From assembly GCA_964555965.1 (NCBI GenBank), contig CAZKUQ010000001.1:35669-99668 (forward strand): DNA of 64,000 nucleotides, in the 5' to 3' direction. Each line of letters starts with the position of its first letter. Position 1 is the first letter of the stretch. This document shows positions 3,018-51,717 of the stretch, one piece after another. The position numbers and the translations under genes were made by a program. Below the pieces are notes generated by a model. The model had not been told where the DNA came from and made no database searches. It saw nothing but the letters and a program-made list of their open reading frames with translations. Source of the DNA: an uncultured Coxiellaceae bacterium (lineage in GTDB: Bacteria > Pseudomonadota > Gammaproteobacteria > DSM-16500).

Positions 3018-5135
3018 GTGTTAATTATTCAAATGTGGAAAAACTTATGTAAAAAGCAAACCGACATTGTTAATCATTATTATTTTCGAAATTATTTTTC
3101 GGCATTATTTTCTCGATTTGCTAAATCCGCCATGTTTTCAAAAATGAGAACCCACGGTCGTGTTATTGCATCAATTTATGACTTATTCGCTGTTGTGCTT
3201 GCTTGGTTATTAGCTTATTGGATTATGATTAATATAATATCAAACCTCTCTCCTGATATTATAAATAAAAAAACAAATAGTTTATTTATAATGATCTTGC
3301 ACTGGAAACTCGTATTATCTTATTTAATTTGGATTATACCATTACAATTTTTATTATTTAGATTATATGGTTTATATCGCGGATTTTGGCGATTTGCATC
3401 AATACAAGATTTACGAAAAATATTTCTTGTTTCGATGCTTGGTGGCTTGATTTCATGGATTATCTTAAGAAGAAATTCAGTTATCATGGGCGATGCTGAC
3501 CCAAATTTATTTAATATATATCTTTTATCACTACCACATTATGTTGTTGCACTCCTTTATACGGGTTTTTTAGCTTTTTTTTTATCCTCAGCACGATTAT
3601 TTGTGCGCCTAGCGAAGGATTGTCAGCATCTTTATCAAGATTATCAGAGAGTCATTATTATTGGGGCTGGAAATGCAGGAGAAGGGTTAGTACGTGATTT
3701 ATTAAGGGATGGTAATCAACCATATAAGCCCGTTGCCTTTGTTGATGATGACCTCAAAAAAGGTGGTCGTGAAATTCATAATGTAAGAGTAGTAGGTATT
3801 ACGGCTGATTTATCTAAATTAATTAAAAGTTACAGAATTGATTTAGTATTAATTGCAATACCATCTATTTCATCAACAAAAATGCGCTCGATTGTTGATA
3901 TTTGTGAGAAAGCAAATGTTCGTTGTTATATATTGCCAGGCATTAAAGATTTAGCAAATGGCTGTGTCAGCATTAATTTACTCCGCAATATTTCACTCGA
4001 AGATTTATTAGGCCGCTACCCAGTTACTTGTCAATGGTCATCCATTACAACGTTCATAAAAGGTAAAACTATTTTAGTGACGGGGGCAGGTGGATCAATT
4101 GGATCTGAATTATGTCGACAAATAATTTCGTTAGGAAGTATTTCGCGTCTTATTGTCTTAGATAATAATGAATATAATTTATATTCAATTGAAATGGAAT
4201 TACGTCAGAAATTTCCTTCTTGCCAATCTCATCCAATATTGCTTAGCGTGACAGATCGCGCTGGGATACAAGCCATATTAAATGAATATCAGCCGCACAT
4301 GGTATTTCATGCCGCAGCATATAAACATGTCCCTTTGCTTGAGTATCAGCCGCGCACAGCTATTTATAATAATATTATTGGTACAAAGATTCTTGCTGAA
4401 GAATCTGTTAGGGCTGGTGTTGAGACATTTGTACTAATTTCTTCTGATAAAGCAGTTAACCCAACAAACATTATGGGCGCTACAAAACGCGCAGCAGAGT
4501 ATTTTTGCCAAAACTTGAATGATCATGCAGAAAAAACGCGCTTTATTACGGTACGTTTTGGTAATGTATTAGATTCAACAGGAAGTGTGATTCCATTGTT
4601 TAGGAAACAAATTGAATCGGGTGGGCCAGTCACAGTTACACACCCGGAAATCACAAGATTTTTTATGACAATTCCGGAAGCATCTCAACTTATTTTGCAG
4701 GCAGCCTTTTTAGGTAAAGGCGGTGAAATTTTTGTTTTGGATATGGGCGATCCGATTAGGATCAGGTATTTGGCGGAACAAATGATCAAGTTGGCGGGTA
4801 AGGTAGTTGATCAAGATGTGAAAATTATTTATACGGGTTTACGGCCAGGTGAAAAATTATATGAAGAATGTTTTTATTCCAATGAAACACTTCAGCCTAC
4901 CATGCATGCCAAAATTTTACGTGCACGATCACAACAGCGCGATTTTAGGGAAATTCAAAATATTTGTTACAAGATGTTATCTTGTTGTGAAACAGGTAAT
5001 GTTGAAAAAGATAACCTTGTCATGCTCTTAAAGAAGCTCGTACCTGAATATGTGGAAATAAAAAATGGATATAAACAAACGACAGAAAATCCTAACGAAA
5101 CTTGGGAGGCCGATCTCATATTAGCGACTATATGA
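3018..5135 (+). CDS. Membrane-anchored nucleotide-sugar 4,6-dehydratase (WbpM/PglF/CapD family)
   Basis: 705 aa. Hydrophobic N-terminal third, then two Rossmann regions (IIGAGNAGEGL and VTGAGGSIGSEL), YKHVPLLE and SSDKAVNPTNIMGATKR motifs of the Polysacc_synt_2/CapD family. Start could be GTG 3018 or ATG 3033. Confidence 0.8.
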   Translation: MLIIQMWKNLCKKQTDIVNHYYFRNYFSALFSRFAKSAMFSKMRTHGRVIASIYDLFAVVLAWLLAYWIMINIISNLSPDIINKKTNSLFIMILHWKLVLSYLIWIIPLQFLLFRLYGLYRGFWRFASIQDLRKIFLVSMLGGLISWIILRRNSVIMGDADPNLFNIYLLSLPHYVVALLYTGFLAFFLSSARLFVRLAKDCQHLYQDYQRVIIIGAGNAGEGLVRDLLRDGNQPYKPVAFVDDDLKKGGREIHNVRVVGITADLSKLIKSYRIDLVLIAIPSISSTKMRSIVDICEKANVRCYILPGIKDLANGCVSINLLRNISLEDLLGRYPVTCQWSSITTFIKGKTILVTGAGGSIGSELCRQIISLGSISRLIVLDNNEYNLYSIEMELRQKFPSCQSHPILLSVTDRAGIQAILNEYQPHMVFHAAAYKHVPLLEYQPRTAIYNNIIGTKILAEESVRAGVETFVLISSDKAVNPTNIMGATKRAAEYFCQNLNDHAEKTRFITVRFGNVLDSTGSVIPLFRKQIESGGPVTVTHPEITRFFMTIPEASQLILQAAFLGKGGEIFVLDMGDPIRIRYLAEQMIKLAGKVVDQDVKIIYTGLRPGEKLYEECFYSNETLQPTMHAKILRARSQQRDFREIQNICYKMLSCCETGNVEKDNLVMLLKKLVPEYVEIKNGYKQTTENPNETWEADLILATI

Positions 5136-10267: not shown

Positions 10268-11435
10268 TGATTAATTGCCTTTTTGAGAGAGAAATACTGG
10301 CTAAGCAAATTAACAAAGGTTCAACTGTAAATGTATATCTAGGAGATGAATATGTGGCAACATGTATTATTGATAAGGCAAGTATAGGTATAAACAATAC
10401 CCAAGCATCGAAATTATTTCGATATTTCCAAAATCCAATGATTCCTAAAATAAATATGGGAAATCGAATTGCTATTAATATTTTCGCGATTAAATTCCTA
10501 TTTGATGCTAATGGCCATCCCCACATGTTTTCTAACGCAAATAATCTTTGTTTTAAGTATGTTGTCGGGTTATTCAATATAAACTGAATATATGTGCGTA
10601 TTGGATGTAATTTTTCATCTTCCTTGAAATTAGCAATGCTTGGATATTCTTCTTTTAGGCTATCAGCATTAAGTGATTTTAAAATTTCTAAACCATATCG
10701 ATTTGTGGAAGCAATAACTCCATAATTAAGTAACATAAAACTAAATAAAATACCTAACATATAACCAGTACAAAAATAAAAAGCTTTAGCTATTTTATCA
10801 TTCTTGCATAAGAAATATAAGCTAATTGCAAACAGTAATGGAAATACAAGTAATAAATCAGATCTAAAAAATGTAGCTAGAAATAGGATAAAACCGGATA
10901 AAAAAAAATTTTTCTTTAAAAAAAGAAATATTGATAATGTTAATAAAAAACAAGCAGGAACTTCAGACAAAATGAAACGCGTATAATTAATTTGGTTTGG
11001 GTATAGGGAAACAATGAGTGCTGTTATAATTCCTATAAATTTTTTGTTCGTTATTTTTGTTGTGATTAGTGCTGCCATCCAGATAATGGACGTTGAAAGT
11101 ATAACATTTATAAAAATAAGTACCTTTGGCATTAATTCCGGTTTAACAAATATTTTTATGATTGCTATTAGCAGGGGTAAGCCATTAGGAAATTTAGCAA
11201 TTGGATGGCCTGCTATAATTGCATCAGCCATGTTGATGTAATCATATGTGTCTGTGCTAAACCACACTAATCCAGAAATGAATGGAAGAGTAAATCTAAT
11301 TAGGAAACCGAGCATGATTACTAAAATTAATGCAGCAAAGGTTACATACCCAAGTGATTGAATATTGTTTTTTAAATTTTTAGGATATAAACTTGAATCC
11401 ATGTTCCATTTCCTTGGATGAAACTCCCTATGCAA
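10248..11435 (-). CDS. GT-C fold membrane glycosyltransferase (ArnT/PMT-like)
   Basis: 395 aa with about 10 hydrophobic segments. An early loop carries acidic/aromatic residues (STDTYDYINMADA). Sits directly upstream of the GT2 and GtrA genes. Confidence 0.5.
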   Translation of the reverse strand: MHREFHPRKWNMDSSLYPKNLKNNIQSLGYVTFAALILVIMLGFLIRFTLPFISGLVWFSTDTYDYINMADAIIAGHPIAKFPNGLPLLIAIIKIFVKPELMPKVLIFINVILSTSIIWMAALITTKITNKKFIGIITALIVSLYPNQINYTRFILSEVPACFLLTLSIFLFLKKNFFLSGFILFLATFFRSDLLLVFPLLFAISLYFLCKNDKIAKAFYFCTGYMLGILFSFMLLNYGVIASTNRYGLEILKSLNADSLKEEYPSIANFKEDEKLHPIRTYIQFILNNPTTYLKQRLFALENMWGWPLASNRNLIAKILIAIRFPIFILGIIGFWKYRNNFDAWVLFIPILALSIIHVATYSSPRYTFTVEPLLICLASISLSKRQLINESIRG

Positions 11436-11537
11436 AAACGGATAATAGCGCGATGCTCCATGTGTCTCAAGTGTTTTTAAATTTTTACGATTTTAAAAAT
11501 GATGAATCATTACATGTGCAACGAGATTAAGTTTTTA

Positions 11538-11565
11538 TTGACATTTTAAAAATGTTAGCTAGACT
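11538..11565 (+). promoter_or_regulatory. Sigma70-like promoter TTGACA-N16-TAGACT
   Basis: TTGACA at 11538-11543 and TAGACT at 11560-11565. Lies in the 415-bp divergent intergenic region, about 55 nt upstream of the ops-like element. Confidence 0.5.
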
Positions 11566-11619
11566 TCAGTCGATATTAAAATTCTACTTAATCTAGAATA
11601 TGGGCAGAATTGCATCGTA

Positions 11620-11631
11620 TGCGGTAGCGTG
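11620..11631 (+). promoter_or_regulatory. ops-like RfaH recruitment element (TGCGGTAGCGTG, 11/12 to GGCGGTAGCGTG)
   Basis: Direct read of the sequence. Lies in the non-template (+) orientation of the downstream operon. Shares the upstream flank ATCGTA with the exact ops at 14576. Confidence 0.65.
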
Positions 11632-11862
11632 TGTTTTAATTCTTATTGATTTATTCTCAAGCAAAAAATATTTTAGCGTCTCAAGTATCACAAAACTAGC
11701 AACGATCCTTATCATTTTTTGTCATTCAATGCTTACCTCGTTTTTTTAACCTTTAATTAGACACCGAAGATTTTTTTCAGCGTCTGGTATTTGATCATCA
11801 GCAATAAATTGTTTTAATTGGTTAGAAAATGTGAATTTTAATAATAAAATATGGAGGTGTCG

Positions 11863-12807
11863 ATGACAGTTTTAATAACAGGTGGTTGTGGATATAAAGG
11901 TAGTGTATTAGTTCCTAAGCTACTTAAAAAAAATCATAAAGTAAGAGTAGTTGATATCATGTGGTTCGGCAATTTTTTGCAACCACATTCCAATTTAGAA
12001 GTAATAAGATCAGATATTCGAAATATACAAGATAAGTGGTTTGAAGATGTGGATGCTATTATTCACTTAGCTTCAGTTGCAAATGATCCCTGTTGCGAAC
12101 TTAATCCTAAATTAACATGGGAAGTAAGCGCATTGTCGACAATGCAGTTGGCTGATAAAGCAGTAAAAAAGGGAGTAAAGAAATTTATTTATGCATCTTC
12201 TGGGAGCGTATATGGTGTAAGCAGTGAGTCACAAGTAACGGAAGATGCACCACTTAACCCCATTTCAGAATATAACAAAGCTAAAATGGTAGCCGAACGT
12301 GTTTTATTAAGCTATTCCAATGAGTTGATAATACAAATTGTAAGACCCGCAACTGTATGTGGTTATTCCCCACGTATGCGATTTGACGTATCTGTTAATA
12401 TGTTGACAATACAAGCTTTAACGAAAAAATTAATTACAGTATTTGGAGGTAATCAAACTCGTCCTAACATTCATATCGATGATATCACTGATTTGTATCT
12501 GTATCTTCTTGATAAAAATATTTCTGGGATTTTTAATGCAGGTTTTGAAAATTTATCCATTTTGGAAATTGCTAAACAAGTCACTTCTTCTATCAATGCT
12601 GAAATTAAAATTACCATGAGCAATGATCCTAGATCTTATCATATTAATTCAGATAAATTATTAAAAATTGGGTTTAAGCCAATGAAATCTGTCCAGGATG
12701 CTATTAATGAATTGATTCAGTATTATCAGCAAGGCACACTCAGAGATGAAGATCGTTTTTATAACATTCGTACGATGAAAAATATACCAGAAGTCTTTTC
12801 TGGTTGA
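11863..12807 (+). CDS. NAD-dependent nucleotide-sugar epimerase/dehydratase (extended SDR)
   Basis: VLITGGCGYKGS Rossmann motif and YNKAK catalytic motif. ORF track starts at 11851, but ATG 11863 is preceded by GGAGG with 6-nt spacing. Confidence 0.7.
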   Translation: MTVLITGGCGYKGSVLVPKLLKKNHKVRVVDIMWFGNFLQPHSNLEVIRSDIRNIQDKWFEDVDAIIHLASVANDPCCELNPKLTWEVSALSTMQLADKAVKKGVKKFIYASSGSVYGVSSESQVTEDAPLNPISEYNKAKMVAERVLLSYSNELIIQIVRPATVCGYSPRMRFDVSVNMLTIQALTKKLITVFGGNQTRPNIHIDDITDLYLYLLDKNISGIFNAGFENLSILEIAKQVTSSINAEIKITMSNDPRSYHINSDKLLKIGFKPMKSVQDAINELIQYYQQGTLRDEDRFYNIRTMKNIPEVFSG

Positions 12808-12917
12808 TAAAGTTAAATTTTGTATGAAAATAGCTCTTTTATTGTTGTTATGATAATTTGATTGATAATAATTTTCTCTAATAATAGATATTAAAATGGA
12901 TATTTGCAGGTAAGCAT

Positions 12918-14498
12918 ATGATTAATAATCTTCAGTCTAATACATTGAATAATATGTTAGCTGTTCATTCAGAATATGATTCAAAAATTGTTACTTATGA
13001 ATTCCTAAGTAAAAAAATTACTTCTACTATAAAAAAAGGAAAAAAGAAAATAGCGCAGTGTCATGGCGTTTTTGATGTATTACATATCGGACATATCAAA
13101 CATCTACAACACGCAAAAACATTTTGTGATGTTTTAATCGTCACAATTACAGCAGATAAATATGTTAACAAAGGTCTAGGAAGACCTTATTTTCCTGAAC
13201 ATCTAAGAGCGCAGGCGCTTGCCGCGCTTAGTTGTGTAGACTATGTTGTTATCAACAATAATGCAACAGCAGTAGAAGCAATCAAAGCTATTCAGCCAAA
13301 TTTTTATGTAAAAGGAATTGAATATCTAATTAGCGAAAATGATCTCACTGGTAAAATTACTGAAGAAGATGAAGCAGTTAAGTCGGTAGGAGGTCAACTG
13401 AGATTTACTGATGATATTGTTTTTAGTTCATCATCGCTGTTGAATCGTTTTTTTACTTCCTACTCACCAGAAATTATTACTTATTTAGATCGACTAAAAC
13501 AAAAATATAAAACAAGTGAGATATTGGACATTTTAAATGGAGCGCAAAAGCTAAACGTATTGTTGATTGGCGAATCGATCATTGATATTTATCATTTTGG
13601 CGAAGCTATTGGTAAAGCGGGGAAAGAACCTGTATTAGTCTCAAAATATCACCGCGAAGAAACTTATATCGGTGGTGTGCTAGCTGTTGCTAATCATTTA
13701 AGTACTTTTTGTTCTAAAGTCACCTGCTTGACCGCTTTAGGAGAGAAAGGTGAATATGAGCAATTTATTAGAAGTAAACTCAATAGCAATGTGAACGTTA
13801 TTTTTCAATATAAAAAAAATTCACCAACAATTATAAAAAGGCGATATTTAGAAGAATATTCATTACAAAAATTATTTGAAATTTACGAGATGAATGATGG
13901 TTATCTAGATGATGAACAAAACAAGAAATTTTCAAATGAACTTGATTGTCACCTTGATAACTATGATCTTGTCATTGTTGCAGATTATGGACATGGATTA
14001 TTGAATAGTGCATGTGTTGAAAAAATTGAGACTAAATCAAAATTCTTAGCTGTTAATACACAATCCAACGCAAGCAATCATGGATTCAACTGCGTTTCAA
14101 AATATAAAAAAGCTGATTACGTTTGTATTGCTACTCGAGAATTGCAACTTAATTATCGTCAAAAACACATTTCAATAATTGAGCAATTAAATCGATTAGT
14201 AAATGATCATTGTTACAATAACGTATTAATTACTAATGGTAGGCATGGCGCCTACTCTTATAAAGCAGGTGAAGGTATCTATGAAGTACCTGCGTTTGCT
14301 ACTTCAATTAAAGATCGTGTGGGAGCTGGCGATGCTGTATTAGCAGTGACTAGCCTTTGCGTTGCTCTAGAAGCCCCTGCTGAATTGGTTGCTTTTATCG
14401 GCAATATAGTTGGTGCTGAAGCTGTTAATATCATGGGTAACGAAAGTTTTATTGAAAAAATTTCTCTCATGAAACATATCACTCATTTGTTGAAATAG
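12918..14498 (+). CDS. Bifunctional nucleotidyltransferase (N-terminal, RfaE domain II-like) / PfkB sugar kinase (C-terminal)
   Basis: N-terminal CHGVFDVLHIGHIKHL (HxGH cytidylyl/adenylyl-transferase motif). C-terminal DRVGAGDAVLAV (PfkB kinase motif). Domain order is the reverse of HldE. Confidence 0.7.
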   Translation: MINNLQSNTLNNMLAVHSEYDSKIVTYEFLSKKITSTIKKGKKKIAQCHGVFDVLHIGHIKHLQHAKTFCDVLIVTITADKYVNKGLGRPYFPEHLRAQALAALSCVDYVVINNNATAVEAIKAIQPNFYVKGIEYLISENDLTGKITEEDEAVKSVGGQLRFTDDIVFSSSSLLNRFFTSYSPEIITYLDRLKQKYKTSEILDILNGAQKLNVLLIGESIIDIYHFGEAIGKAGKEPVLVSKYHREETYIGGVLAVANHLSTFCSKVTCLTALGEKGEYEQFIRSKLNSNVNVIFQYKKNSPTIIKRRYLEEYSLQKLFEIYEMNDGYLDDEQNKKFSNELDCHLDNYDLVIVADYGHGLLNSACVEKIETKSKFLAVNTQSNASNHGFNCVSKYKKADYVCIATRELQLNYRQKHISIIEQLNRLVNDHCYNNVLITNGRHGAYSYKAGEGIYEVPAFATSIKDRVGAGDAVLAVTSLCVALEAPAELVAFIGNIVGAEAVNIMGNESFIEKISLMKHITHLLK

Positions 14499-14505
14499 TC
14501 TAATA

Positions 14506-14533
14506 TTGACAACTTGTCAGAGTTGGCTAAACT
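14506..14533 (+). promoter_or_regulatory. Sigma70-like promoter TTGACA-N16-TAAACT
   Basis: TTGACA at 14506-14511 and TAAACT at 14528-14533, about 43 nt upstream of the exact ops element. Confidence 0.5.
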
Positions 14534-14575
14534 CATCTTTCATTTGAACGCCTATGCGATGTTTATATATCGTAG

Positions 14576-14587
14576 GGCGGTAGCGTG
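14576..14587 (+). promoter_or_regulatory. ops element, exact match GGCGGTAGCGTG
   Basis: Direct read. 12/12 identity to the E. coli ops consensus, 36 nt upstream of the ABC transporter start codon, with rfaH encoded in the same window. Confidence 0.8.
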
Positions 14588-14623
14588 CTGTACACTCCAT
14601 TATAGAAAGTCCCCCTTATTAAA

Positions 14624-16399
14624 ATGAAAAATCATATAAAACAATTTTTATATTTATTGGATAGCCAAGCGAGAAGTGCTATTCCATTTTTAATTTTAAA
14701 TTTTTTATTTTCATCAGTATTAGATGTTATTGGGATTGCGCTAGTTGGCATTTTTCTTGGATTATTAACTGATCCTGCTATTTTAGCTCATAAATTTTCA
14801 TTTATCAGGATTTCTTTACCAATAATCGGTAATAAGCTAGTAGCTGTTTTCGGCTTATTTATTATATTAGCATTTGCTATTAAAGCTTTTGTTGCACTCA
14901 CCTTACAAAAAAAACTTATTTTTTTCTGCCAAGCGCTAGCTGTTAGACTCAAAACGCGTTTAATGACGGCTTATCAATATGCTCCTTATACTTTTCATCT
15001 TCAAAAAAATTCTGATTATTTAATATCCAGAATTCAAGGAAATATTGATAGCTATATAAGTAATGTGTTAATGGCTATTTTGTATCTTATTTCCAACCTA
15101 TTAATTACAATTTTTATTTTATCATTTTTATTAGTATTGCATCCTTTTTCTACGATAGCCCTGCTGGCCGCATTTATCTTATTAGGTATTAGCTACGATT
15201 TATTGGCGAAGAAAAAATTATCTGCAATGGGCAAAAAATTATCCATGATGAATGGAGAAATTTCAAAAAGTATTAGACATGGATTACATGGATTAATTGA
15301 AGTACGCGTGTTAGGTAAGGAAGAATATTTTATCGAAAACTTAACGCGACATTCTATTGAGCTTGCCAATGCATACGGTGTGTTGATAACTAAACAATTG
15401 GTGCCTCGTTATTTAATTGAGAATATGTTGGCCATTTTTATGGTTGTTATATGTTTAGGTGGAATGATTGTTGGATCTGATACGAGTAATGTAGTAGCAA
15501 TGGCTGGGATGTTTGCAGCTGCTGGCGCACGACTTTTACCGACGGCCACTCAAATCATGGCGAGTATTAACCAACTACGAGGTTATTTTCATCAAATGGA
15601 TCTTGTTTATAATGAATTAAATGATATTCACCTTATGCAAAATTCGTTACAAACTGACTTATTTTCGAATCAGAAAGAAAAATTAGTTTTTTCTAAAATT
15701 CAATTAAAAAATATTTTTTTTCAATACCCACAAACTACTTTTTCCGCTCTAAAAAATGTAGACCTTACTATTTTTAAAGGACAATCCGTAGGTTTGATTG
15801 GCCCTTCAGGTGCAGGTAAAAGTACACTAGTAAATTTAATTTTAGGATTTTTAGAACCTCAACAGGGACAGTTATTAATTGATGAGCGACCTCTTCAAAG
15901 TTTAAGAACATGGCTAAATAATTTTGCTTATTTACCACAGACTATTTTTTTATTGGATGATTCGTTGCGACGAAATGTGGCATTTGGTATTCATGATGAT
16001 GCAATTGATGAAGCACGACTATGGAATGCTCTTAACATGGCTCAACTTGCTGATGTTGTTCAAAATCTTCCAAATGGAGTTGATACATTAATTGGTGAAA
16101 ATGGCATACGTTTGTCTGGCGGACAACGTCAGCGTGTTGCATTGGCACGAGCGTTTTATCATGAAAGGGATATAATCATCTTAGATGAAGCTACTTCGTC
16201 ATTAGATAATGAAACAGAAAAAGAAGTAATTAATACGATTAAACGATTTAAGGGAAATAAAACATTAATTGTAATTGCACATCGTTTAACAACAGTCGAG
16301 CATTGTGATGTATTGTATCGATTAGAAAAAGGTTCTGTAGTGGCGGTTGGCACATATCAAGAAGTAGTCGTTGGTCCCACATCTTATCAATCAGCTTGA
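14624..16399 (+). CDS. Fused TMD-NBD ABC exporter (MsbA/PglK-like)
   Basis: Six N-terminal TM segments. Walker A GPSGAGKST, signature LSGGQRQR and Walker B IIILDEATS. Confidence 0.85.
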   Translation: MKNHIKQFLYLLDSQARSAIPFLILNFLFSSVLDVIGIALVGIFLGLLTDPAILAHKFSFIRISLPIIGNKLVAVFGLFIILAFAIKAFVALTLQKKLIFFCQALAVRLKTRLMTAYQYAPYTFHLQKNSDYLISRIQGNIDSYISNVLMAILYLISNLLITIFILSFLLVLHPFSTIALLAAFILLGISYDLLAKKKLSAMGKKLSMMNGEISKSIRHGLHGLIEVRVLGKEEYFIENLTRHSIELANAYGVLITKQLVPRYLIENMLAIFMVVICLGGMIVGSDTSNVVAMAGMFAAAGARLLPTATQIMASINQLRGYFHQMDLVYNELNDIHLMQNSLQTDLFSNQKEKLVFSKIQLKNIFFQYPQTTFSALKNVDLTIFKGQSVGLIGPSGAGKSTLVNLILGFLEPQQGQLLIDERPLQSLRTWLNNFAYLPQTIFLLDDSLRRNVAFGIHDDAIDEARLWNALNMAQLADVVQNLPNGVDTLIGENGIRLSGGQRQRVALARAFYHERDIIILDEATSSLDNETEKEVINTIKRFKGNKTLIVIAHRLTTVEHCDVLYRLEKGSVVAVGTYQEVVVGPTSYQSA

Positions 16400-16417: not shown

Positions 16418-17596
16418 GTGGTGAGTAACAAAAATATTTTTTGGTGTGCAAATTGCTTAAATATGTCGACAAGACCAAGAATTTCTTTTGATGCGCGAGG
16501 TTGGTGTAATGCGTGCCAATGGATGGAAGAAAAAAAAATGACGGATTGGTCTGAGAGACAAGCTGAATTTAAAAAGCTATTTGAAAAATACCAATCTAAA
16601 ACAGGAGGCTTTGATTGTATTGTTCCTGTTAGTGGTGGCAAAGATGGTTCATATGTTGCATATACACTAAAGCATAAATATAAAATGAATCCGCTTGCTA
16701 TTACGATTAGACCCGCATTAGAACTAGAGATAGGCAGTCAAAATCTGCATAACTTTATACGATCAGGTTACAATCATTTACATGTTTCAACAAACCCATA
16801 TGCATTAGATAAATTAAATAAATATGGATTTATCGAAAAAGGATTCCCATATTATGGTTGGTTAATAGCGATTATGACCGCCGTCATTAGGGCTGCTATA
16901 AACTTTAGGATCCCATTAATTGTTTATGGTGAAGACGGGGAAATTGAATATGGTGGTTCCACAGAAAACAAAAACAAAGCTTTATACAATATAGAATATA
17001 TGAAAAGAGTTTATTTAGAGAGTGGTCATGAGAAAGTTTTATCAAGATTACTAGAAGATTGTGATATTAGCGAAGCTGATTTATCGTGGTTTAAATTTCC
17101 AGAAGATCACGAAATACATGAAACAGATTTATCATTTACTCATTGGTCTTATTTTGAATCTTGGGATTCTTATAAAAATTATATCGTAGCAAAAGAACAT
17201 TGTGGATTAATCGAAAAAGAAGAAGGAACTGTGGGCACATTCACTAATTTTGCCCAAAATGATCAAGCGTTATATACACTACATACTTATCTGATGTACT
17301 TAAAATTTGGATTTGGACGCGCAACCCAAGATGCGGGAATAGAAATTAGAAGAGGAGCAATGACAAGAGATCAAGCGCTTAATCTAGTTAAAATGTACGA
17401 TAATATTTACCCTTATGAATTAATCGATATCTATTTGAATTATTATCAGATGACAAAAAATGAATTTGATGCGGTTTTAGATAAATTTGCAAATAAAGGA
17501 TTATTTGAGAAGATAGATGGAATCTGGCAACCGAAATTTGTAGTCGGTGAAAATTTCGAAATCAAAGATCAAATTTATGAATGTAGTAATTATTGA
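16418..17596 (+). CDS. N-acetyl sugar amidotransferase (WbpG/PseA/WbuX family), copy 1
   Basis: N-terminal Cys-rich region CANCLNMSTRP...CNAC. PP-loop VPVSGGKDGSY. C-terminal FGFGRATQDA...RRG motif shared with copy 2. Confidence 0.75.
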   Translation: MVSNKNIFWCANCLNMSTRPRISFDARGWCNACQWMEEKKMTDWSERQAEFKKLFEKYQSKTGGFDCIVPVSGGKDGSYVAYTLKHKYKMNPLAITIRPALELEIGSQNLHNFIRSGYNHLHVSTNPYALDKLNKYGFIEKGFPYYGWLIAIMTAVIRAAINFRIPLIVYGEDGEIEYGGSTENKNKALYNIEYMKRVYLESGHEKVLSRLLEDCDISEADLSWFKFPEDHEIHETDLSFTHWSYFESWDSYKNYIVAKEHCGLIEKEEGTVGTFTNFAQNDQALYTLHTYLMYLKFGFGRATQDAGIEIRRGAMTRDQALNLVKMYDNIYPYELIDIYLNYYQMTKNEFDAVLDKFANKGLFEKIDGIWQPKFVVGENFEIKDQIYECSNY

Positions 17597-18188
17597 TTAT
17601 GGTATGGGAAATATTAAATCATTGGCAAGCGCATTGAGTTATGTTGGAGCCAACAATATTGTTATATCTAGTGAATATCAAAAATTAAAAAGCGCTGATA
17701 AATTAATATTGCCCGGGGTTGGTTCATTTGCTAAAGCAATAAATATAATCAGACAAAAAAAAATAGATATTTATTTAAATGAACAAGTATTAGAAAAAAA
17801 GAAACCTATTCTGGGTATTTGCTTAGGAATGCAGCTCATGGGGATTTCGAGTACTGAGAATGGGGTTAATAAAGGACTAGGTATTATCGACGGAGAAGTG
17901 ACTAAATTTAATAATAATTATATAAAAGTACCTCATGTTGGTTTTAATCAAGTAAAAGTTAATCCCGAGTTAAAATTATATCAGATGATGGTAGGTAGTC
18001 TTGATTTTTATTTCACACATAGTTTTCGTATGCTTAGCACGAATAATATTAATCAATGTCATTGTTATTATGGGGATGAGTTCATTGCTAGCTTTGAAAA
18101 TGAAAACATTGCAGGTGTTCAATTTCATCCTGAGTTAAGTCAAAAAAATGGATTACAATTGCTTAAAAATTTTATTGAAAAATTTTAA
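17577..18188 (+). CDS. HisH-like glutamine amidotransferase subunit (WbuY-like), copy 1
   Basis: VVIIDYGMGNIKS, LPGVGSF, GICLGMQ (nucleophile Cys) and FHPE motifs. Start moved from 17547 to ATG 17577 to remove the overlap extension. Confidence 0.8.
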   Translation: MNVVIIDYGMGNIKSLASALSYVGANNIVISSEYQKLKSADKLILPGVGSFAKAINIIRQKKIDIYLNEQVLEKKKPILGICLGMQLMGISSTENGVNKGLGIIDGEVTKFNNNYIKVPHVGFNQVKVNPELKLYQMMVGSLDFYFTHSFRMLSTNNINQCHCYYGDEFIASFENENIAGVQFHPELSQKNGLQLLKNFIEKF

Positions 18189-18958
18189 TGCTAAGAAAAA
18201 GAATTATATTTACATTAATTTATAATCAAAACTTTTTTATGCAAAGTCGAAATTTTCGGTTACAAAAAGTTGGCGATATCAATTGGCTCGAAAGAAATTA
18301 TCAATTTCAAAATATTTCATTTTCACTTGATGAATTAATTATTCTAAATGCATCAAGAAATTTGAAGACAACACAGGAATTTGCAGCAATTATTTCTAGA
18401 TTATCGGATAAGGTCTTTATACCGATCGCAGCTGGAGGCGGCATTCGTTCAATTGAAGATGCTGAAACATTATTTAATAATGGCGCTGATAAGATAGTAA
18501 TTAATAGCATTCTTTTACAAGATCCTGATCTTGTAAAAGAATTAATAAATCGATATGGAGCACAAAGTATTATTGCTTCTATTGATTACAAAAAAATTAA
18601 TAATGTTAATGAGGTTTATATTTCTGATGGCTCGATAAAAGTAGAATCATCATTAAGAGATTATATTAAATATGTTGAAAATTTAGATATCGGCGAAATT
18701 TATCTAAATTCAATCGATAAAGATGGTACCGGCTTTGGCTATGATTTTGAAACTATCAATATTATCAAAGATGAGATTAAGGTTCCTTTGATTATTGCGG
18801 GTGGAGCAGGCAATCAATATCATTTGTTAGAAGGTTTAAACATACCTCAAATTAGTGCTGTTGCTACTGCTAATCTTTTTAATTTTATTGGCCAAAGTTT
18901 GTCGATGGCAAGAAAAAACATTATCAAAGCAGGCGTGAATATCGCATGTTGGGAATGA
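18188..18958 (+). CDS. HisF-like cyclase subunit (WbuZ-like), copy 1
   Basis: (beta/alpha)8 HisF-type motifs DELIILN, GGGIRS, DKDGTGFGYD and IAGGAG. Start overlaps the stop of the HisH-like gene. Confidence 0.8.
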   Translation: MLRKRIIFTLIYNQNFFMQSRNFRLQKVGDINWLERNYQFQNISFSLDELIILNASRNLKTTQEFAAIISRLSDKVFIPIAAGGGIRSIEDAETLFNNGADKIVINSILLQDPDLVKELINRYGAQSIIASIDYKKINNVNEVYISDGSIKVESSLRDYIKYVENLDIGEIYLNSIDKDGTGFGYDFETINIIKDEIKVPLIIAGGAGNQYHLLEGLNIPQISAVATANLFNFIGQSLSMARKNIIKAGVNIACWE

Positions 18959-23621: not shown

Positions 23622-24794
23622 ATGATTAAATATTGCAAAATCTGTGTTTTACCTGAAACAAAGCCCGATTTATGGTTTGATGAAAATGGAGTATGTAGTG
23701 CATGTTTGAATTATCAAAATCGTGCGTATATTGATTGGACAGAACGTCGCGAAGAGTTGGAAGCAATATTATCTCGATATCGATCTAAAAACTATTGGGA
23801 TTGCATAGTACCTGTTAGTGGCGGCAAAGACAGTACTTATCAAGTTCTGCGATTATTAGAACTTAATATGAATCCGCTATGTGTGACATCAACAACATGT
23901 GACTTATCACGCATCGGTAGGAAAAATATTGAAAATATTAAAAATTTTGGTGTTGATTATGTTGAATTTTCGCCAAATAAAAAAATACGAAGTCAATTAA
24001 ATCGTATAGGATTGACAGAGGTTGGTGATATCTCTTGGCCTGAACATGTAGGTATATTTACCATTCCTGTTCGTGCAGCCGTTCAATTTGGCATTAAATT
24101 AATTATATGGGGGGAAAACTCTCAAAATGAATACGGAGGTCCGGCTGCAGCAAGTGATAATCATTTTTTAGATCGGAATTGGTTAGAAGAGTTTGGCGGA
24201 CTTTTAGGATTAAGAGTGTCAGATTTATCTGCAGCCTATGGTATCAAAGAAAAAAATCTTATTCCTTATCAATATCCAACAGATGAACAATTAAAAACAG
24301 TTGGCGTGACAGGATTATTTCTTGGTCACTACATTCCATGGGATGGCTACTCAAATGCGTTGATATCTCAAGCATTTGGCTTAACAACTTATGATAAAGT
24401 TGTTGAAGGCTCTGGTGTTAACTATGAAAATCTAGATAATTATCAGACTGGTATTCATGATTATTTTAAATTTTTAAAATTTGGTTTTGGTCGAGCAACT
24501 GATATTGCCTCATTACATGTTAGACGCGGCCGAATTACGCGATTTGATGCACTTAACATAATTAAGATACATGATGGTAAATTTCCTTGCTCTTATTTAG
24601 GTAAAAGCCTAGATAAGGTATTAAAACCACTGAATTTGTCAGTAGAAGAATTTATTACAATCGCTGATCAGTTTACCAATAAAAAATTATTCAAAACAGA
24701 TTCACAAGGCCGATTAATCAAAGATAAACATGGTAATTTGTCAAAAATTAATTACGACAATGATGACGTTGTAAAACTAAATATGGTTATATGA
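23622..24794 (+). CDS. N-acetyl sugar amidotransferase (WbpG/PseA/WbuX family), copy 2
   Basis: CKICVLPETKP...CSAC, PP-loop VPVSGGKDSTY, and FGFGRATDIA...RRG. Confidence 0.75.
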   Translation: MIKYCKICVLPETKPDLWFDENGVCSACLNYQNRAYIDWTERREELEAILSRYRSKNYWDCIVPVSGGKDSTYQVLRLLELNMNPLCVTSTTCDLSRIGRKNIENIKNFGVDYVEFSPNKKIRSQLNRIGLTEVGDISWPEHVGIFTIPVRAAVQFGIKLIIWGENSQNEYGGPAAASDNHFLDRNWLEEFGGLLGLRVSDLSAAYGIKEKNLIPYQYPTDEQLKTVGVTGLFLGHYIPWDGYSNALISQAFGLTTYDKVVEGSGVNYENLDNYQTGIHDYFKFLKFGFGRATDIASLHVRRGRITRFDALNIIKIHDGKFPCSYLGKSLDKVLKPLNLSVEEFITIADQFTNKKLFKTDSQGRLIKDKHGNLSKINYDNDDVVKLNMVI

Positions 24795-25405
24795 GTATTG
24801 CAATAATCGATTATGAAGCTGGTAATACAGGTTCTCTCAAATACGCATTAAATGAAAGCGGATTTGAGAGTTACATTGCATATGAGCCAAAAGATCTTGA
24901 TAAAGCTAGCCATATTATTTTGCCTGGTGTCGGTTCGTTTAACAAAGCAATGCATGTATTACGTGAGAGAAAATTAGATTATTCCATTAAGAAATCAGTT
25001 TTAAAACGAAAAATTCCTATATTAGGAATTTGCTTAGGCATGCATGTCTTAGCTACTAAAGGAATAGAAGGCGGCGAAACACAAGGATTAGATTTGATTC
25101 CTGGTGTTGTTTGCTTACTCGAATCTACGCAGAGTAAAATTCGACTACCCCATATTGGATGGAATGAAACATGGTTTGAAAATGGGGCTTCTTTGTTCAG
25201 CAGTATACCATCGGGCAGCGATTTTTATTTTTTACATAGTTATCATTTTGCAACACAAGATCCAGCAACTATTATTGCAAAGACAAATTATGGTTGTGCT
25301 TTCGCATCAGTTGTTATGAAAGATAATATCTATGGAGTGCAATTTCATCCTGAAAAAAGTGGTCGGTTAGGCAGACAATTATTAAAAAATTTTGCGTCAT
25401 TGTAG
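24791..25405 (+). CDS. HisH-like glutamine amidotransferase subunit, copy 2
   Basis: IAIIDYEAGNTGS, LPGVGSF, GICLGMH and FHPEKS motifs. ATGA overlap with the upstream gene. Confidence 0.8.
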   Translation: MSIAIIDYEAGNTGSLKYALNESGFESYIAYEPKDLDKASHIILPGVGSFNKAMHVLRERKLDYSIKKSVLKRKIPILGICLGMHVLATKGIEGGETQGLDLIPGVVCLLESTQSKIRLPHIGWNETWFENGASLFSSIPSGSDFYFLHSYHFATQDPATIIAKTNYGCAFASVVMKDNIYGVQFHPEKSGRLGRQLLKNFASL

Positions 25406-25414
25406 GCATACTTT

Positions 25415-26182
25415 ATGCTCAAATATCGTGTCATACCCACTTTATTATTGAAAGATATTGGCTTAGTAAAGGGCAAATTATTTAATAATTCTCGGCGAGT
25501 TGGTAGCATTTTGCCTGCAATCAAAGTTTATAATAATCGCGAAGTAGATGAGCTCGTTATATTTGATATTTCTGCTACGATTAATTCTAGACCACCTGAT
25601 TTTGATATTATCGCAAGTATTACACCATATTGTTTGATGCCATTAACAGTAGGTGGTGGAATTACTGAGTTAATCCATATACAAAAACTTTTACAACTAG
25701 GTGTAGATAAAGTAACGATTAATACTGCTGCGTACCATAACTTAAAGCTAATTGAAGATGCTGCGAATAAATTTGGAAGTCAATGTATTGTTACATGTAT
25801 AGATGCAAAAAAAGTTGCAACAGGTACGTATAGTTGTTTTAGCAAAATTGGTACTCATAATCAGAATCTAAATCCTGTTCAATGGGCAAAACAACTTGAA
25901 AATCATGGGGCAGGTGAAATATTAATAACATCTGTTGAAAAAGACGGAACAATGTCTGGTTATGATTTAGAACTTATTAGTCTTATTACTAACGCAGTAA
26001 ACATACCAGTTATCGCATCTGGTGGCGCAGGTGAACCTGAACATGCATATCAAGTAATTACATTAGCAGGAGCATCAGCTGTTGCAGCTGCTAGTATTTT
26101 TCATTTTACTGAGCAAACACCTTTGAGCATCAAACATTATTTATCGCAAAAAGGCGTACCAGTTCGAAAAAATTTTTTATAA
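25415..26182 (+). CDS. HisF-like cyclase subunit, copy 2
   Basis: RVIPTLLLK, DELVIFD, VGGGI, EKDGTMSGYD and ASGGAG motifs. Confidence 0.8.
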   Translation: MLKYRVIPTLLLKDIGLVKGKLFNNSRRVGSILPAIKVYNNREVDELVIFDISATINSRPPDFDIIASITPYCLMPLTVGGGITELIHIQKLLQLGVDKVTINTAAYHNLKLIEDAANKFGSQCIVTCIDAKKVATGTYSCFSKIGTHNQNLNPVQWAKQLENHGAGEILITSVEKDGTMSGYDLELISLITNAVNIPVIASGGAGEPEHAYQVITLAGASAVAAASIFHFTEQTPLSIKHYLSQKGVPVRKNFL

Positions 26183-27642: not shown

Positions 27643-28695
27643 ATGCAGGATATTATCATTAAAGATCGAGTTATTGGCCTAGGCCATAAGCCATTTATTA
27701 TTGCTGAAATGTCTGGAAATCATAATCAATCTCTAGATAGAGCATGTGAAATAGTCAAAGCTGCGGCAAAAGCAAAGGTTGATGCAATAAAATTGCAAAC
27801 ATACACAGCTGAAACTATGACAATTAATTTAAGTGAAAAAGAATTTTTTATAAATGATCCAAATAGTTTGTGGCAGGGTAACTCTCTTTTCACGCTTTAC
27901 CAAAAAGCATACACACCATGGGAATGGCACAAAGCTATTTTTGATTTATGTAATCAATATGGAATAATTTGTTTTAGCACACCATTTGATGCATCTGCAG
28001 TTGATTTTCTCGAATCGCTTAACGTACCGCTATATAAAATTGCCTCTTTTGAAAATACTGACTTAGCGCTTATTCGTAAAGTTGTTGCAACAGGGAAACC
28101 GATTATCATTTCAACCGGAATGGCCTCATTATCAGAGCTTGATGAGGCAGTTAGAGTTGCGCGCGAAGCAGGTTGTGAGAACTTAATTCTATTAAAATGT
28201 ACTAGCGCTTACCCAGCATCTCCTGATGATTCAAATATTAGAACAATTTCACACATGCGTGATTTATTTCAATGTCAAGTTGGGCTATCTGATCACACCT
28301 TAGGTGTTGGTGCAGCAGTTGCTAGTGTCGCGCTAGGCGCGACAGTGATAGAAAAACATTTTACGCTTTCTCGATCAGAAGGTGGTGTTGATTCTGCATT
28401 TTCTTTAGAGCCATCAGAAATGCAATTATTGGTAGACGAAACAGAAAGAGCGTGGCGTTCTTTAGGGAAAATTACGTATGAAGCTAGTGAAAAAGAAAAA
28501 GCATCTTTAGTTTATAGACGTTCTTTGTATGTAGTTGAAGATATGAATAAAGGCGACATATTTTCTCTAACAAATGTTCGAGCTATTCGCCCAGGTTTTG
28601 GACTATTACCGAAGTACTTGCCGCAACTTTTAGGAAAACGAATTAATCGTGATGTTCAAAAAGGTACGCCTGTTGCTTGGGAATTAATCGGCTAA
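27643..28695 (+). CDS. pseI: Pseudaminic acid synthase, PseI (NeuB family)
   Basis: FIIAEMSGNHNQSLDRA, STPFD, LSDHTLG and a C-terminal SAF-like domain (VRAIRPGFGL). AEMSGNHN is PseI-like, unlike the AEAGVNHNG of the second NeuB homolog in this window. Confidence 0.75.
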   Translation: MQDIIIKDRVIGLGHKPFIIAEMSGNHNQSLDRACEIVKAAAKAKVDAIKLQTYTAETMTINLSEKEFFINDPNSLWQGNSLFTLYQKAYTPWEWHKAIFDLCNQYGIICFSTPFDASAVDFLESLNVPLYKIASFENTDLALIRKVVATGKPIIISTGMASLSELDEAVRVAREAGCENLILLKCTSAYPASPDDSNIRTISHMRDLFQCQVGLSDHTLGVGAAVASVALGATVIEKHFTLSRSEGGVDSAFSLEPSEMQLLVDETERAWRSLGKITYEASEKEKASLVYRRSLYVVEDMNKGDIFSLTNVRAIRPGFGLLPKYLPQLLGKRINRDVQKGTPVAWELIG

Positions 28696-39925: not shown

Positions 39926-40929
39926 TGAAAAAAAAATTCTTGCTATTATTTTATTTTGTGATGACCTATTTAGGTTTTATTAAATTATTTTATTGGTTAA
40001 ATCGTAATAAAAAAATAATTTTAACTTATCATAATATTATTCCCAATCATTTATTTGATGATAGTTGCCACTTGGGTGTATCGCATACTGAATCAGTATT
40101 TAAAGAACAAATAAAATTAATTTATCAGCGATTTGATCGTAATCAATGCCTTATTACTTTTGATGATGGTTATAAAAATCAACTTGAGGTTGCGGCAAAA
40201 ATTTTAAGTGATCATCATCTGCAAGGCATATTTTTTGTATCATTTCAATCGCTGTTATCAGGTCAGACGTTGACAATTGATCGAATTATGATGTGGCTAA
40301 GTTATGTTCCCGCTGGCAATTATCATATGCTAGGAAGTGATATTACTATTAATAATGCGACACGAGATTTAGTTGCAGCAAAGTTATATCAGCAATTAAT
40401 TGACGATATTAAATTATGGGATGTGATAGAAGAAAATTTAAATAACGCATTTCCATTTGATCAATTATCGATTGATGATGAACTTGTAAGATTAAGATTT
40501 AAACCGCTGACAGCGGATGATTTAGAAATACTAAAAAATGATGGCCACTTAGTTGGATCGCACAGCTGGGATCATCGACCACTGGGACGATTATCATTGG
40601 AAGAGCAAAAAGAAGATTTTTCGAAATGTATTGTTCTTGCTAATCAATATTGTAATTCTTGGCTATATAGTTATCCGTTTGGTGGTATTCAGGAAGTCTC
40701 ACCACTTACAACAAAATTATGTGCAGAATCAGGTTTTAGTTCAGCATTCATGAATATGTCGCCATCACCGGCATGGGTTGATGCTGATAGAAATTATACC
40801 TTGCCAAGATTAAGTCTTCCAAATGTAAAAAATAAATATTTATTGGATGCGAAATTATCCGGCTTTGAATCGTTTTGTAAATCAATAGTTAGGGGCATGA
40901 GATCTGAGGACTTATATGATAAAAAATAA
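39925..40929 (+). CDS. Polysaccharide deacetylase (NodB homology domain) with N-terminal TM anchor
   Basis: ITFDDGYKNQ and VGSHSWDHRPL motifs. The ORF track TTG start at 39919 is replaced by ATG 39925 (TAATG junction). Confidence 0.7.
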   Translation: MKKKFLLLFYFVMTYLGFIKLFYWLNRNKKIILTYHNIIPNHLFDDSCHLGVSHTESVFKEQIKLIYQRFDRNQCLITFDDGYKNQLEVAAKILSDHHLQGIFFVSFQSLLSGQTLTIDRIMMWLSYVPAGNYHMLGSDITINNATRDLVAAKLYQQLIDDIKLWDVIEENLNNAFPFDQLSIDDELVRLRFKPLTADDLEILKNDGHLVGSHSWDHRPLGRLSLEEQKEDFSKCIVLANQYCNSWLYSYPFGGIQEVSPLTTKLCAESGFSSAFMNMSPSPAWVDADRNYTLPRLSLPNVKNKYLLDAKLSGFESFCKSIVRGMRSEDLYDKK

Positions 40930-41161
40930 TTATAAGGAATGGTTAATAAGCTGGTTTAAAAAAAACATGGAAATATCTGTAGATGTTGTTCATCGTGATT
41001 TTTTTAAAGAAGGCTGGCTTGATTCATTTAAAACAATTGAATTAATCTCTGAAATAGAAAAAACATTTAAATTATCATTTAGTGATTCTCATTTTACGGA
41101 TGCTAGATTTTCTACCATTGATGGTCTAGCAGAAATTTTAGCTGAAATAAAAAGCAATTAA
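40916..41161 (+). CDS. Acyl/aminoacyl carrier protein-like
   Basis: 81 aa. GWLDSFKTIELISEIEK resembles the DSL/DSF phosphopantetheine attachment helix of ACP/DltC-like carriers. Sits next to an adenylating enzyme gene. Confidence 0.5.
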   Translation: MIKNNYKEWLISWFKKNMEISVDVVHRDFFKEGWLDSFKTIELISEIEKTFKLSFSDSHFTDARFSTIDGLAEILAEIKSN

Positions 41162-41172
41162 AGGAATATCAA

Positions 41173-42144
41173 ATGATTAATCCTCTTCAAAAAAAAGCAA
41201 TCAGCACTTTATTATTTCATTGTGGCAATTTGAATATAGAAGATCGCGCTCTTATTTTGTGCGACTCAAGTACACGACCGATAGCTGAAGCTTTTGTTAA
41301 TGTAGCAAATGAGGCTGATCATCAGATAAAACTGCTGGAAATACCGCCATTATCTAATCATGGTGCAGAACCGCCAGCTGATGCAGTAGATGCAATGCAG
41401 GCATCTACTTTAATACTCAGTCTTTGTAAATATTCATTAGCTCATAGTAAGGCGCGAATAAATGCTGCAAATGCAGGCGCACGTTTTCTTAGCCTACCAT
41501 TATATGATTGGAATCTTTTAGAAGATCAAAGCTTGCATATCGACTTCAAATCGCAAGCTAATTTAGTGCGAAAATTTTCGCAAGCATTTACTGACGGAAA
41601 AACTGTTCGCGTAACAACAGCTGCAGGAACGGATATCACACTTGGTATTACTGACCGGATTGGTAATTATTGTCCTGGATTTGTTGAGCGTCCGGGTGAT
41701 TTAGGTTCCCCACCTGATATCGAAGCAAATGTGTCGCCAATAGAAGATGGTTCAGAAGGAATTATTATTATTGATGGTTCAATTACGCATCCTAATTTTG
41801 GCTTGCTAGAAAAACCGATTGAACTGATCGTGCATAACGGCCGTATTGTTGAATTTCGTGGTAATAAAAATCAAGTTGCTATGCTTAATGAAATGTTTGG
41901 AACATTGGATTCGCCACGAAGAGTGTTAGCTGAATGTGGTGTAGGACTTAATCCTGCAGCGAAGTTAACTGGCATCATGTTAACTGATGAAGGCGCGTTA
42001 GGTTGTATGCATTTTGGTTTTGGTGCTAATCATACTGTTGGTGGTAAAAATAAAGTGGATTTTCATTTGGACTTTGTTTTCCATGATGCAACGCTGCAAG
42101 TAGATGGCCAAACTTTACTTCAATCTGGAATACCTCAATTATGA
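41173..42144 (+). CDS. Aminopeptidase T (M29/COG2309)-like protein
   Basis: The patterns ANVSPIEDGSEG, IIIDGSI, ECGVGLNP and GCMHFGFG resemble the thermophilic-aminopeptidase family. Tentative. Confidence 0.4.
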   Translation: MINPLQKKAISTLLFHCGNLNIEDRALILCDSSTRPIAEAFVNVANEADHQIKLLEIPPLSNHGAEPPADAVDAMQASTLILSLCKYSLAHSKARINAANAGARFLSLPLYDWNLLEDQSLHIDFKSQANLVRKFSQAFTDGKTVRVTTAAGTDITLGITDRIGNYCPGFVERPGDLGSPPDIEANVSPIEDGSEGIIIIDGSITHPNFGLLEKPIELIVHNGRIVEFRGNKNQVAMLNEMFGTLDSPRRVLAECGVGLNPAAKLTGIMLTDEGALGCMHFGFGANHTVGGKNKVDFHLDFVFHDATLQVDGQTLLQSGIPQL

Positions 42145-51701: not shown

Positions 51702-51717
51702 AAAGGTGTTTCAAAAA

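Follow-up and report, generated by a model that had tools for sequence, protein, structure and literature searches.

Several NusG paralogues are encoded in cis, including UpxY in the capsule loci of Bacteroides, LoaP in polyketide and polysaccharide operons of Bacillus and Clostridia, and TaA in Myxococcus. In E. coli and Salmonella, RfaH is said to act on the JUMPstart-ops leaders of rfb, waa, kps, hly, and tra, which were reportedly described by Hobbs & Reeves in 1994 and by Bailey et al. in 1997. The mechanism was described by Zuber et al. 2018 (PMC5995543): in E. coli, RNA polymerase pauses at U11 of ops, and a mini-hairpin of the non-template strand, closed by the C3:G8 pair, presents G5 and T6 to residues K10, H20, R23, and R73 of RfaH. 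In the E. coli element, pausing does not need bases 3-8, but the binding of RfaH does (PMC5995543). RfaH keeps NusG and Rho out, counteracts pausing, and, through ribosomal protein S10, brings ribosomes to mRNAs without a Shine-Dalgarno (SD) sequence (PMC6391919), and long polysaccharide operons are its classic target class (PMC6391919, PMC7593976). Weinberg et al. (PMC2864571) noted a conserved stem-loop in JUMPstart elements and put JUMPstart among their candidate structured RNAs. The contacts of RfaH with ops and its autoinhibition are inferred to have arisen together (Wang et al. 2020, PMC7593976), and RfaH homologues with a predicted beta-structured C-terminal domain (CTD), which adjoin LPS operons and lack several of the ops-binding residues, are reported to act without ops (bioRxiv 2026, PMC13015549).

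Here we report the analysis of a 64-kb stretch of DNA (hereafter the window) that carries a perfect ops element at 14576-14587. With a probability of about 0.85, we consider this site to be a functional ops at the core of a JUMPstart-type leader, by means of which the product of rfaH (2470-2988) would control a cell-surface polysaccharide operon at least 49 kb long. This reading extends the known JUMPstart/ops-RfaH antitermination circuit, base for base, to a new AT-rich uncultured lineage near Coxiellaceae. An initial annotation of this DNA had already interpreted the site in terms of RfaH and ops, and that interpretation is now supported by the cognate rfaH gene, by conservation of the leader, and by a covariance model score of 30.3 bits. 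Beyond it, we found the rfaH gene within the window, a second, partly decayed ops module, and a hairpin 5' of ops.

The ops element and the leader of the exporter gene

The two promoter-ops modules of the window and the genes downstream of the second one comprise the following features.

11538-11565, + strand: promoter P1, TTGACA-N16-TAGACT, same type as P2
11620-11631, + strand: ops#1 TGCGGTAGCGTG, 11/12 match with G1 replaced by T
14506-14511 (-35, TTGACA) and 14528-14533 (-10, TAAACT), + strand: promoter P2 with a 16-nt spacer, 10/12 sigma-70 match
14555-14562 (UGCGAUGU) and 14567-14574 (AUAUCGUA), + strand: arms of the JUMPstart-type hairpin with loop UUAU, formed in the minimum-free-energy structure predicted for the leader
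14576-14587, + strand: ops#2 GGCGGTAGCGTG, 12/12 match; model R1 30.3 bits, E = 5e-8, over 14540-14595
14588-14623, + strand: ops-to-start spacer of 36 nt without SD sequence, anti-SD duplex -0.4 kcal/mol
14624-16399, + strand: first gene, PglK/MsbA-like ABC exporter (PglK, E = 1e-84; MsbA, E = 1e-82; Pfam ABC_tran and ABC_membrane)
16418-64000, + strand: 49 further complete genes and a last ORF truncated at the window end, no gap above 65 nt

The exact 12/12 match of ops#2 that the initial annotation had claimed was confirmed, and it is the sole exact copy in the window, where base composition (GC 0.33) gives a chance expectation of 4.3e-4 copies on both strands. Sites with at most one mismatch to ops number two, compared with a mean of 0.01 in 100 dinucleotide shuffles. 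The element is intergenic, being located between the end of an HldE-like gene (14498) and the start of the ABC exporter gene (14624), and the only ORFs overlapping it are short (27-37 aa). The 12-nt sequence GGCGGTAGnnTG occupies the non-template (sense) strand, which is shared with the downstream genes, and the window itself codes for a cognate RfaH (2470-2988). By analogy with E. coli, ops#2 is expected to be the RfaH loading site, read on the non-template strand, with the U11 pause at position 14586.

The promoter TTGACA-N16-TAAACT, previously described as near-consensus, matches the sigma-70 consensus at 10 of 12 positions and is kept in the orthologous leaders; P1 and P2 are the only exact TTGACA-N16-TARACT matches in the window. 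From the location of P2, transcription is predicted to start at approximately 14540. The spacings given earlier also hold, with 42 nt (against about 43) from the -10 hexamer to ops G1 and 36 nt from ops G12 to the ATG at 14624. Likewise, the claimed lack of an SD sequence at the exporter ATG was borne out: the best anti-SD duplex between -20 and -3 has an energy of -0.4 kcal/mol, compared with medians for the 52 co-directional genes of -3.3 (listed starts) and -5.4 (when the best alternative start is taken). An SD sequence is missing in about 10% (5/52) of the operon genes as well; the four other genes that are as bare of it as the exporter all lie no more than 13 nt from the gene before them, compared with a gap of 125 nt for the exporter. 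As in the E. coli work (PMC6391919), the missing SD may be tied to ribosome recruitment by RfaH.

Genes downstream of ops

The ~50-kb gene run that had been proposed downstream of the element consists of 50 complete + strand ORFs between 14624 and 63090 and one more that begins at 63117 and is cut off by the end of the window, and the largest gap between them is 65 nt; from this co-directional arrangement, we infer a single-transcript operon. The exporter encoded by the first gene scores below the NCBIfam equivalog cut-offs of both PglK and MsbA, and it is a probable flippase for a lipid-linked glycan. The downstream products include two WbpG/HisH/HisF-like amidotransferase sets, two nonulosonic-acid pathways centered on NeuB, GT4 glycosyltransferases, PseB/PseC-like enzymes, CMP-sugar synthetases and transferases, aminotransferases, deacetylases, and an ACP/AMP-ligase module. 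Based on this gene content, the run is assigned as a cell-surface polysaccharide cluster (O-antigen or capsule-like) with a PglK/Wzk-type exporter.

The WbpG/HisH/HisF-like sets are located at 16418-18958 and 23622-26182, and the NeuB genes at 27643-28695 and 51685-52797. The NeuB genes are accompanied by separate partners, namely PseB/PseC-like genes or 2-epimerase and CMP-transferase genes. These look like two nonulosonic-acid pathways in one operon, the product being probably decorated with acetamidino groups. At 40916-44883 (+), genes for an acyl-carrier protein, an ORF of unknown function, an AMP-dependent ligase, and a class I/II aminotransferase lie inside the operon and suggest that the glycan is decorated with acyl or aminoacyl groups.

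A scan for intrinsic terminators gave no convincing candidate between the genes of the 14.6-64 kb run. The scan returned weak candidates (hairpin plus T-run), ~44 in the + and 36 in the - orientation, almost all of which lie within ORFs, and in DNA as AT-rich as this, such a scan is uninformative. A terminator candidate at 63182 was rejected because of its position inside an ORF. A tRNA scan gave no hits.

A JUMPstart-type hairpin directly upstream of ops

The hairpin in the exporter leader has the conserved core UGCGA/UCGUA and is separated by the single base G14575 from ops, which begins at 14576. The ops sites linked to rfaH homologues share a stem in this very position, with the consensus UGCGGAAC...GUUCUGCA followed by 1 nt and GGCGGUAGCGUG. 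In 44 independent sites, the 9-bp stem is 85% paired, compared with 29-54% when one partner is slid along the other, and pairing within the subfamily reaches 91.7%. The two arms covary, with 56 double-change cells compared with 26 +/- 3 in shuffled alignments, and none of the 500 shuffles reached the observed value. The folding energy of the whole leader is not significant (z = -1.43), so the case for the hairpin rests on covariation.

A covariance model (R1) was built from 44 ops sites adjoining rfaH homologues in other genomes, with the window left out. Its top match in the window spans 14540-14595 and scores 30.3 bits (E = 5e-8), and ops#1 receives 10.5 bits (E = 0.24). The Rfam family RF01707 (JUMPstart) had no match in the window at its gathering threshold of 35 bits, and it gave nothing at E <= 10 over 11300-14800 and nothing in 18 related loci; the leader of E. 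coli rfb, used as a positive control, scored 60 bits. None of the Rfam families reached its threshold in the window or in these 18 loci. The RF01707 model is too E. coli-specific. By comparison, R1 scores the E. coli JUMPstart element at only 22.8 bits, and the window displays the JUMPstart layout of a stem-loop, one unpaired nucleotide, and ops in the 5' UTR of a polysaccharide gene. Because RF01707 is blind to the window and the layout is nevertheless the same as in E. coli, we consider the window element to be a divergent module of the JUMPstart type. Since R1 finds leaders missed by RF01707, it could be used for the annotation of RfaH regulons in metagenome-assembled genomes (MAGs).

In the predicted leader RNA, five further pairs between 14549-14553 (CGCCU) and 14575-14579 (GGGCG) prolong the hairpin. 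According to the folding model, this extension would hide the spacer base and G1-G4 of ops in the RNA after the polymerase has moved on.

The rfaH gene and its product

The gene for the predicted cognate regulator is located in the same cluster, 12 kb upstream of ops#2, and is followed by a dehydratase gene.

2470-2988, + strand: rfaH, 172 aa, NusG-family antiterminator (TIGR01955 RfaH equivalog, 151.4 bits; cut-off 144.5)
3018-5135, + strand: WbpM/PglF-like dehydratase gene, 30 nt past rfaH

The protein combines an NGN and a KOW domain and scores above the RfaH cut-off and below the NCBIfam cut-offs of NusG (TIGR00922, 50.7 vs 135.7), UpxY (68.1 vs 100), and LoaP (44.1 vs 125). Its best sequence matches in the PDB are structures of E. 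coli RfaH (E = 7e-18). Of the residues that read ops in E. coli, K10, R23, and R73 are kept as K14, R27, and R77, along with Q28 (Q24), T76 (T72), and G78 (G74). H20 of E. coli corresponds to N24, an asparagine also found in 29 of the 35 clade members, and R16 corresponds to I20. The equivalents of E48, R138, and I93 (E52, R146, and V97) are reported as kept, and F130 is replaced by Val. The initial annotation had suggested strong selection on the contact between RfaH and ops, and this fits both the retention of the K10, R23, Q24, T72, R73, and G74 equivalents and the invariance of the 12-mer in genomes with a GC content between 0.31 and 0.72.

An AlphaFold2 model based on an alignment of 35 sequences has a mean pLDDT of 81.7 and comprises the NGN domain and a five-stranded KOW domain. 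The CTD is predicted as a beta-barrel (strands at 123-170, pLDDT 76-86), and the alpha-hairpin of autoinhibited RfaH is not predicted. Over its full length, the model matches active RfaH and NusG, and it matches autoinhibited RfaH over the N-terminal domain only. The model thus gives no more than a hint that the autoinhibited state with an alpha-helical CTD is missing, as one predicted state leaves the other possible.

The best genome match to the window RfaH comes from an uncultured Coxiellaceae MAG (65% identity), identity to Coxiella burnetii is 50%, and its relatives are otherwise from metagenomes. In exact-sequence look-ups, the RfaH sequence was found only in a 3-kb Logan contig and the exporter sequence was not on record, and a literature search combining RfaH with Coxiella returned nothing relevant. 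The closest RfaH relatives, with 71-78% identity, are encoded on groundwater metagenome contigs (L082-L086), in which no ops with up to two mismatches was found within 10 kb of rfaH. The cis linkage of rfaH and ops is therefore not universal, and these contigs are unusable for leader comparison. Of the three closest relatives that were examined, two have the same pair of rfaH and a wbpM-like gene, and in the third, rfaH is followed by a Polysacc_synt_3 gene on the opposite strand. The neighboring polysaccharide genes of L082-L086 are also largely on the opposite strand.

Linkage of ops to rfaH and conservation of the leader in other genomes

A genome scan with the single RfaH protein gave no matches, and a scan with the alignment of 35 RfaH sequences retrieved 80 genome loci (1.05 Mb in total) with an rfaH homologue. 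In 45 of these 80 loci, the exact 12-mer follows rfaH at a distance of 55-2385 nt on the same strand, and only two exact copies exist anywhere else in the 1.05 Mb. The central ops bases 3-8 are invariant in more than 60 sites. Many gammaproteobacterial MAGs share one gene order, consisting of a ugd/tviB-like gene, rfaH, an ORF of ~200 aa, the hairpin with ops, an epimerase gene, and manC (e.g., L015, 10546-11148, and L066, 10293-11144), and this order accounts for a cluster of rfaH-to-ops distances at 735-960 nt. The ~200-aa product encoded after rfaH resembles a winged-helix regulator.

A metagenome scan for the 18-mer TCGTAGGGCGGTAGCGTG returned 37 loci, of which the low-GC ones bear the same UGCGA/UCGUA hairpin and ~14 are coincidences within coding sequences of high-GC contigs. 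The coding loci (L089-L091, L096, L099, L105, L111-L113, and L116-L119) share the conserved sequence ...GTCGAGCACGTCGTAGGGCGGTAGCGTGTCCTGGTCGGTCTGGTT... and come from high-GC soil and sediment contigs. As this coding-like sequence is unrelated to the leaders, caution is needed in genome scans that use the motif only.

The contig Ga0207159_1002 is syntenic with the window, with the order wbpM, hairpin and ops, acyltransferase, epimerase, HldE-like gene, hairpin and ops, and exporter; protein identities are 72% for wbpM, 76-80% for the epimerase, 72% for the HldE-like enzyme, and 68% for the exporter. In three more contigs (L120-L122), a promoter, hairpin, and ops immediately precede an exporter orthologue (49-67%), and a contig of GC 0.64 has the same placement before an exporter homologue of 36% identity. 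An alignment of six leaders has a mean column identity of 56%, with invariant columns for TTGACA, TA.ACT (the third base of the -10 being A or G), AUG.G (left arm), UCGUA (right arm), and bases 2-12 of ops, position 1 being variable through ops#1 of the window (T). In the orthologous leaders, the ops-to-start spacer measures 10-39 nt, and the anti-SD duplexes of +1.5 to -3.2 kcal/mol include no good SD. The alignment shows apparent selection in this lineage on the whole module of promoter, hairpin, 1-nt spacer, ops, and SD-less start, beyond the 12-mer alone.

Proposed mechanism and alternative explanations

If the leader operates as in E. coli, transcription would start near 14540 from TTGACA-N16-TAAACT, and the polymerase would pause at U11 (14586), leaving the bases of ops accessible on the non-template strand. 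RfaH would read the G5/T6 loop of the non-template DNA hairpin through its equivalents of K10, R23, Q24, and R73, bind the polymerase, and exclude NusG, allowing pause- and Rho-resistant elongation through 50-plus genes. Its KOW domain would recruit a ribosome, via ribosomal protein S10, to the SD-less exporter start 36 nt further on. The sequence data themselves show the leader features, the rfaH gene, and their conservation and co-occurrence; pausing, loading, antitermination, and ribosome recruitment are all transferred here from the E. coli work, and the argument for the same mechanism is built on the invariance of the central ops bases, the linkage of ops with rfaH, and the consistent lack of an SD in front of the first gene. 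Counted against RfaH control are the replacements of H20 by Asn and of R16 by Ile, the beta-CTD prediction, which in E. coli-like homologues goes along with ops-independent action (PMC13015549), the miss by RF01707, the ops-less contigs L082-L086, and the share of about 10% of operon genes without an SD.

Some properties of the hairpin would also suit a model in which hairpin and ops act as an RNA element, whether bound by a protein or sRNA, stabilizing the 5' end, or controlling translation, and not, or not only, as a DNA signal for RfaH. A G.U pair is kept in the stem (in 26 of 44 sites at one position and in 14 of 18 at another), a strand-specific feature typical of RNA; the hairpin is close to where the mRNA is predicted to begin; and JUMPstart is a candidate structured RNA according to Weinberg et al. 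(PMC2864571). We nevertheless find this model improbable, since the invariant part is the 12-nt ops, an established non-template DNA signal in E. coli (PMC5995543), and the tight linkage of ops and rfaH is explained by RfaH; an RNA hairpin and a DNA signal are, moreover, compatible with each other.

It seems very improbable that ops is a mere consensus (elemental) pause, which slows the polymerase close to the start codon and so synchronizes transcription and translation without recruiting RfaH, and that the RfaH-like protein works in cis independently of ops. The consensus pause is indeed matched by ops (PMC5995543), H20 and R16 are not conserved in the window RfaH, and AlphaFold assigns it a beta CTD, as in homologues that adjoin LPS operons and are ops-independent in E. 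coli reporters (PMC13015549). However, a pause needs the flanking bases only, yet it is the RfaH-binding bases 3-8 that stay the same in over 60 sites at GC contents of 0.31-0.72, and the equivalents of K10, R23, Q24, and R73 are retained. As rfaH is 12 kb away from ops with opposite-strand genes in between, simple co-transcriptional loading in cis is impossible. That the GC-rich intergenic 12-mer arose by chance is effectively refuted: TCGTAGGGCGGTAGCGTG does occur within a conserved coding region of ~14 high-GC metagenome contigs, but the chance expectation is 4e-4 per window, the orthologous position is kept in four other contigs, and rfaH co-occurs. Among these explanations, control of the operon by RfaH through ops is thus the one that we prefer.

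Comparison with known antitermination systems

The window shares with the JUMPstart leaders of E. coli and Salmonella an identical 12-nt ops, the geometry of stem-loop, one unpaired nucleotide, and ops, the placement ahead of a long polysaccharide operon within its predicted 5' leader, an SD-less first gene, and an RfaH that passes the equivalog cut-off. It differs from E. coli in the sequence of the hairpin (UGCGA/UCGUA compared with CUGG/CCAG), in the residues at positions 20 (Asn in place of His) and 16 (Ile in place of Arg) and the predicted beta-structured CTD of RfaH, and in its host, an AT-rich uncultured gammaproteobacterium near Coxiellaceae with an operon of at least 49 kb. Similar to the predicted monomorphic RfaH homologues (PMC13015549), rfaH of the window lies in cis with a polysaccharide cluster, and a NusG-like beta-barrel CTD is predicted for its product by AlphaFold2. 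Unlike these homologues (PMC13015549), the window has a perfect, conserved ops with a hairpin, and most ops-contact residues are kept. As in the UpxY, LoaP, and TaA systems, the antiterminator gene is located in or near the long operon that it would serve, and the recruitment signal is in the 5' leader; however, the window protein is below the UpxY and LoaP family cut-offs, and UpxY, LoaP, and TaA use leader signals other than ops.

If the beta-CTD prediction is right, the clade of the window RfaH would separate the ops contacts from autoinhibition. We therefore mention, as a speculation that is unlikely to hold in full, that this lineage, and perhaps many uncultured Gammaproteobacteria with rfaH just ahead of a hairpin and ops, possess a canonical-ops RfaH without autoinhibition by an alpha-helical CTD, a living intermediate in which ops recognition is uncoupled from fold-switch autoinhibition, and that the JUMPstart stem is an exit-channel pause hairpin prolonging the loading of RfaH. 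The 1-nt spacing, invariant from E. coli to Coxiellales, would put the base of the hairpin 12 nt from the 3' end at U11, so it could be an exit-channel pause hairpin. The locus offers a natural test bed for the role of the JUMPstart hairpin, for ops recognition without metamorphic autoinhibition, and for polymerase processivity over at least 49 kb.

Other ops-like sites in the window

The module formed by P1 and ops#1 (11538-11631) would, in the proposed scheme, be the older one and serve the two genes just upstream of the exporter leader. It lies in the leader of an epimerase gene (ATG at 11863, with a GGAGG Shine-Dalgarno sequence), which is followed by the HldE-like gene (12918-14498). The orthologue of ops#1 in the contig Ga0207159_1002 (L094) has an intact hairpin and a 12/12 ops and scores 35.8 bits; compared with it, ops#1 lacks G1 and one base of the spacer and carries a mutated left hairpin arm. 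The module therefore looks like a degenerate, partly decayed copy. Behind ops#1, in a 219-nt leader, ~30 codons at 11633-11745 (+), beginning with SSKKYFSVSSITKLATILIIFCHSM, match the N-terminus of an acyltransferase-like protein, and the matching gene of 385 aa follows the orthologous ops in Ga0207159_1002 (L094, 4887-6044). These codons look like the relic of a deleted acyltransferase-like gene.

The HldE-like enzyme (12918-14498) has a domain order reversed compared with E. coli HldE, the nucleotidyltransferase (rfaE domain II) occupying residues 35-167 and the PfkB kinase (rfaE domain I) residues 209-510. Both domains score well below their equivalog cut-offs, so the substrate may differ.

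A third ops-like site, AGCGGTAGCTTG at 60782 (within 60782-60818, +), is located within a UDP-GlcNAc 2-epimerase gene and has two mismatches. With an R1 score of 8.2 bits (E = 1.4), it was rejected as a real ops and is probably a chance match. It overlaps TTGACA-N16-TAAATT, which is one mismatch off the promoter type of P1 and P2 and could be an internal promoter for the genes from 61165 onward.
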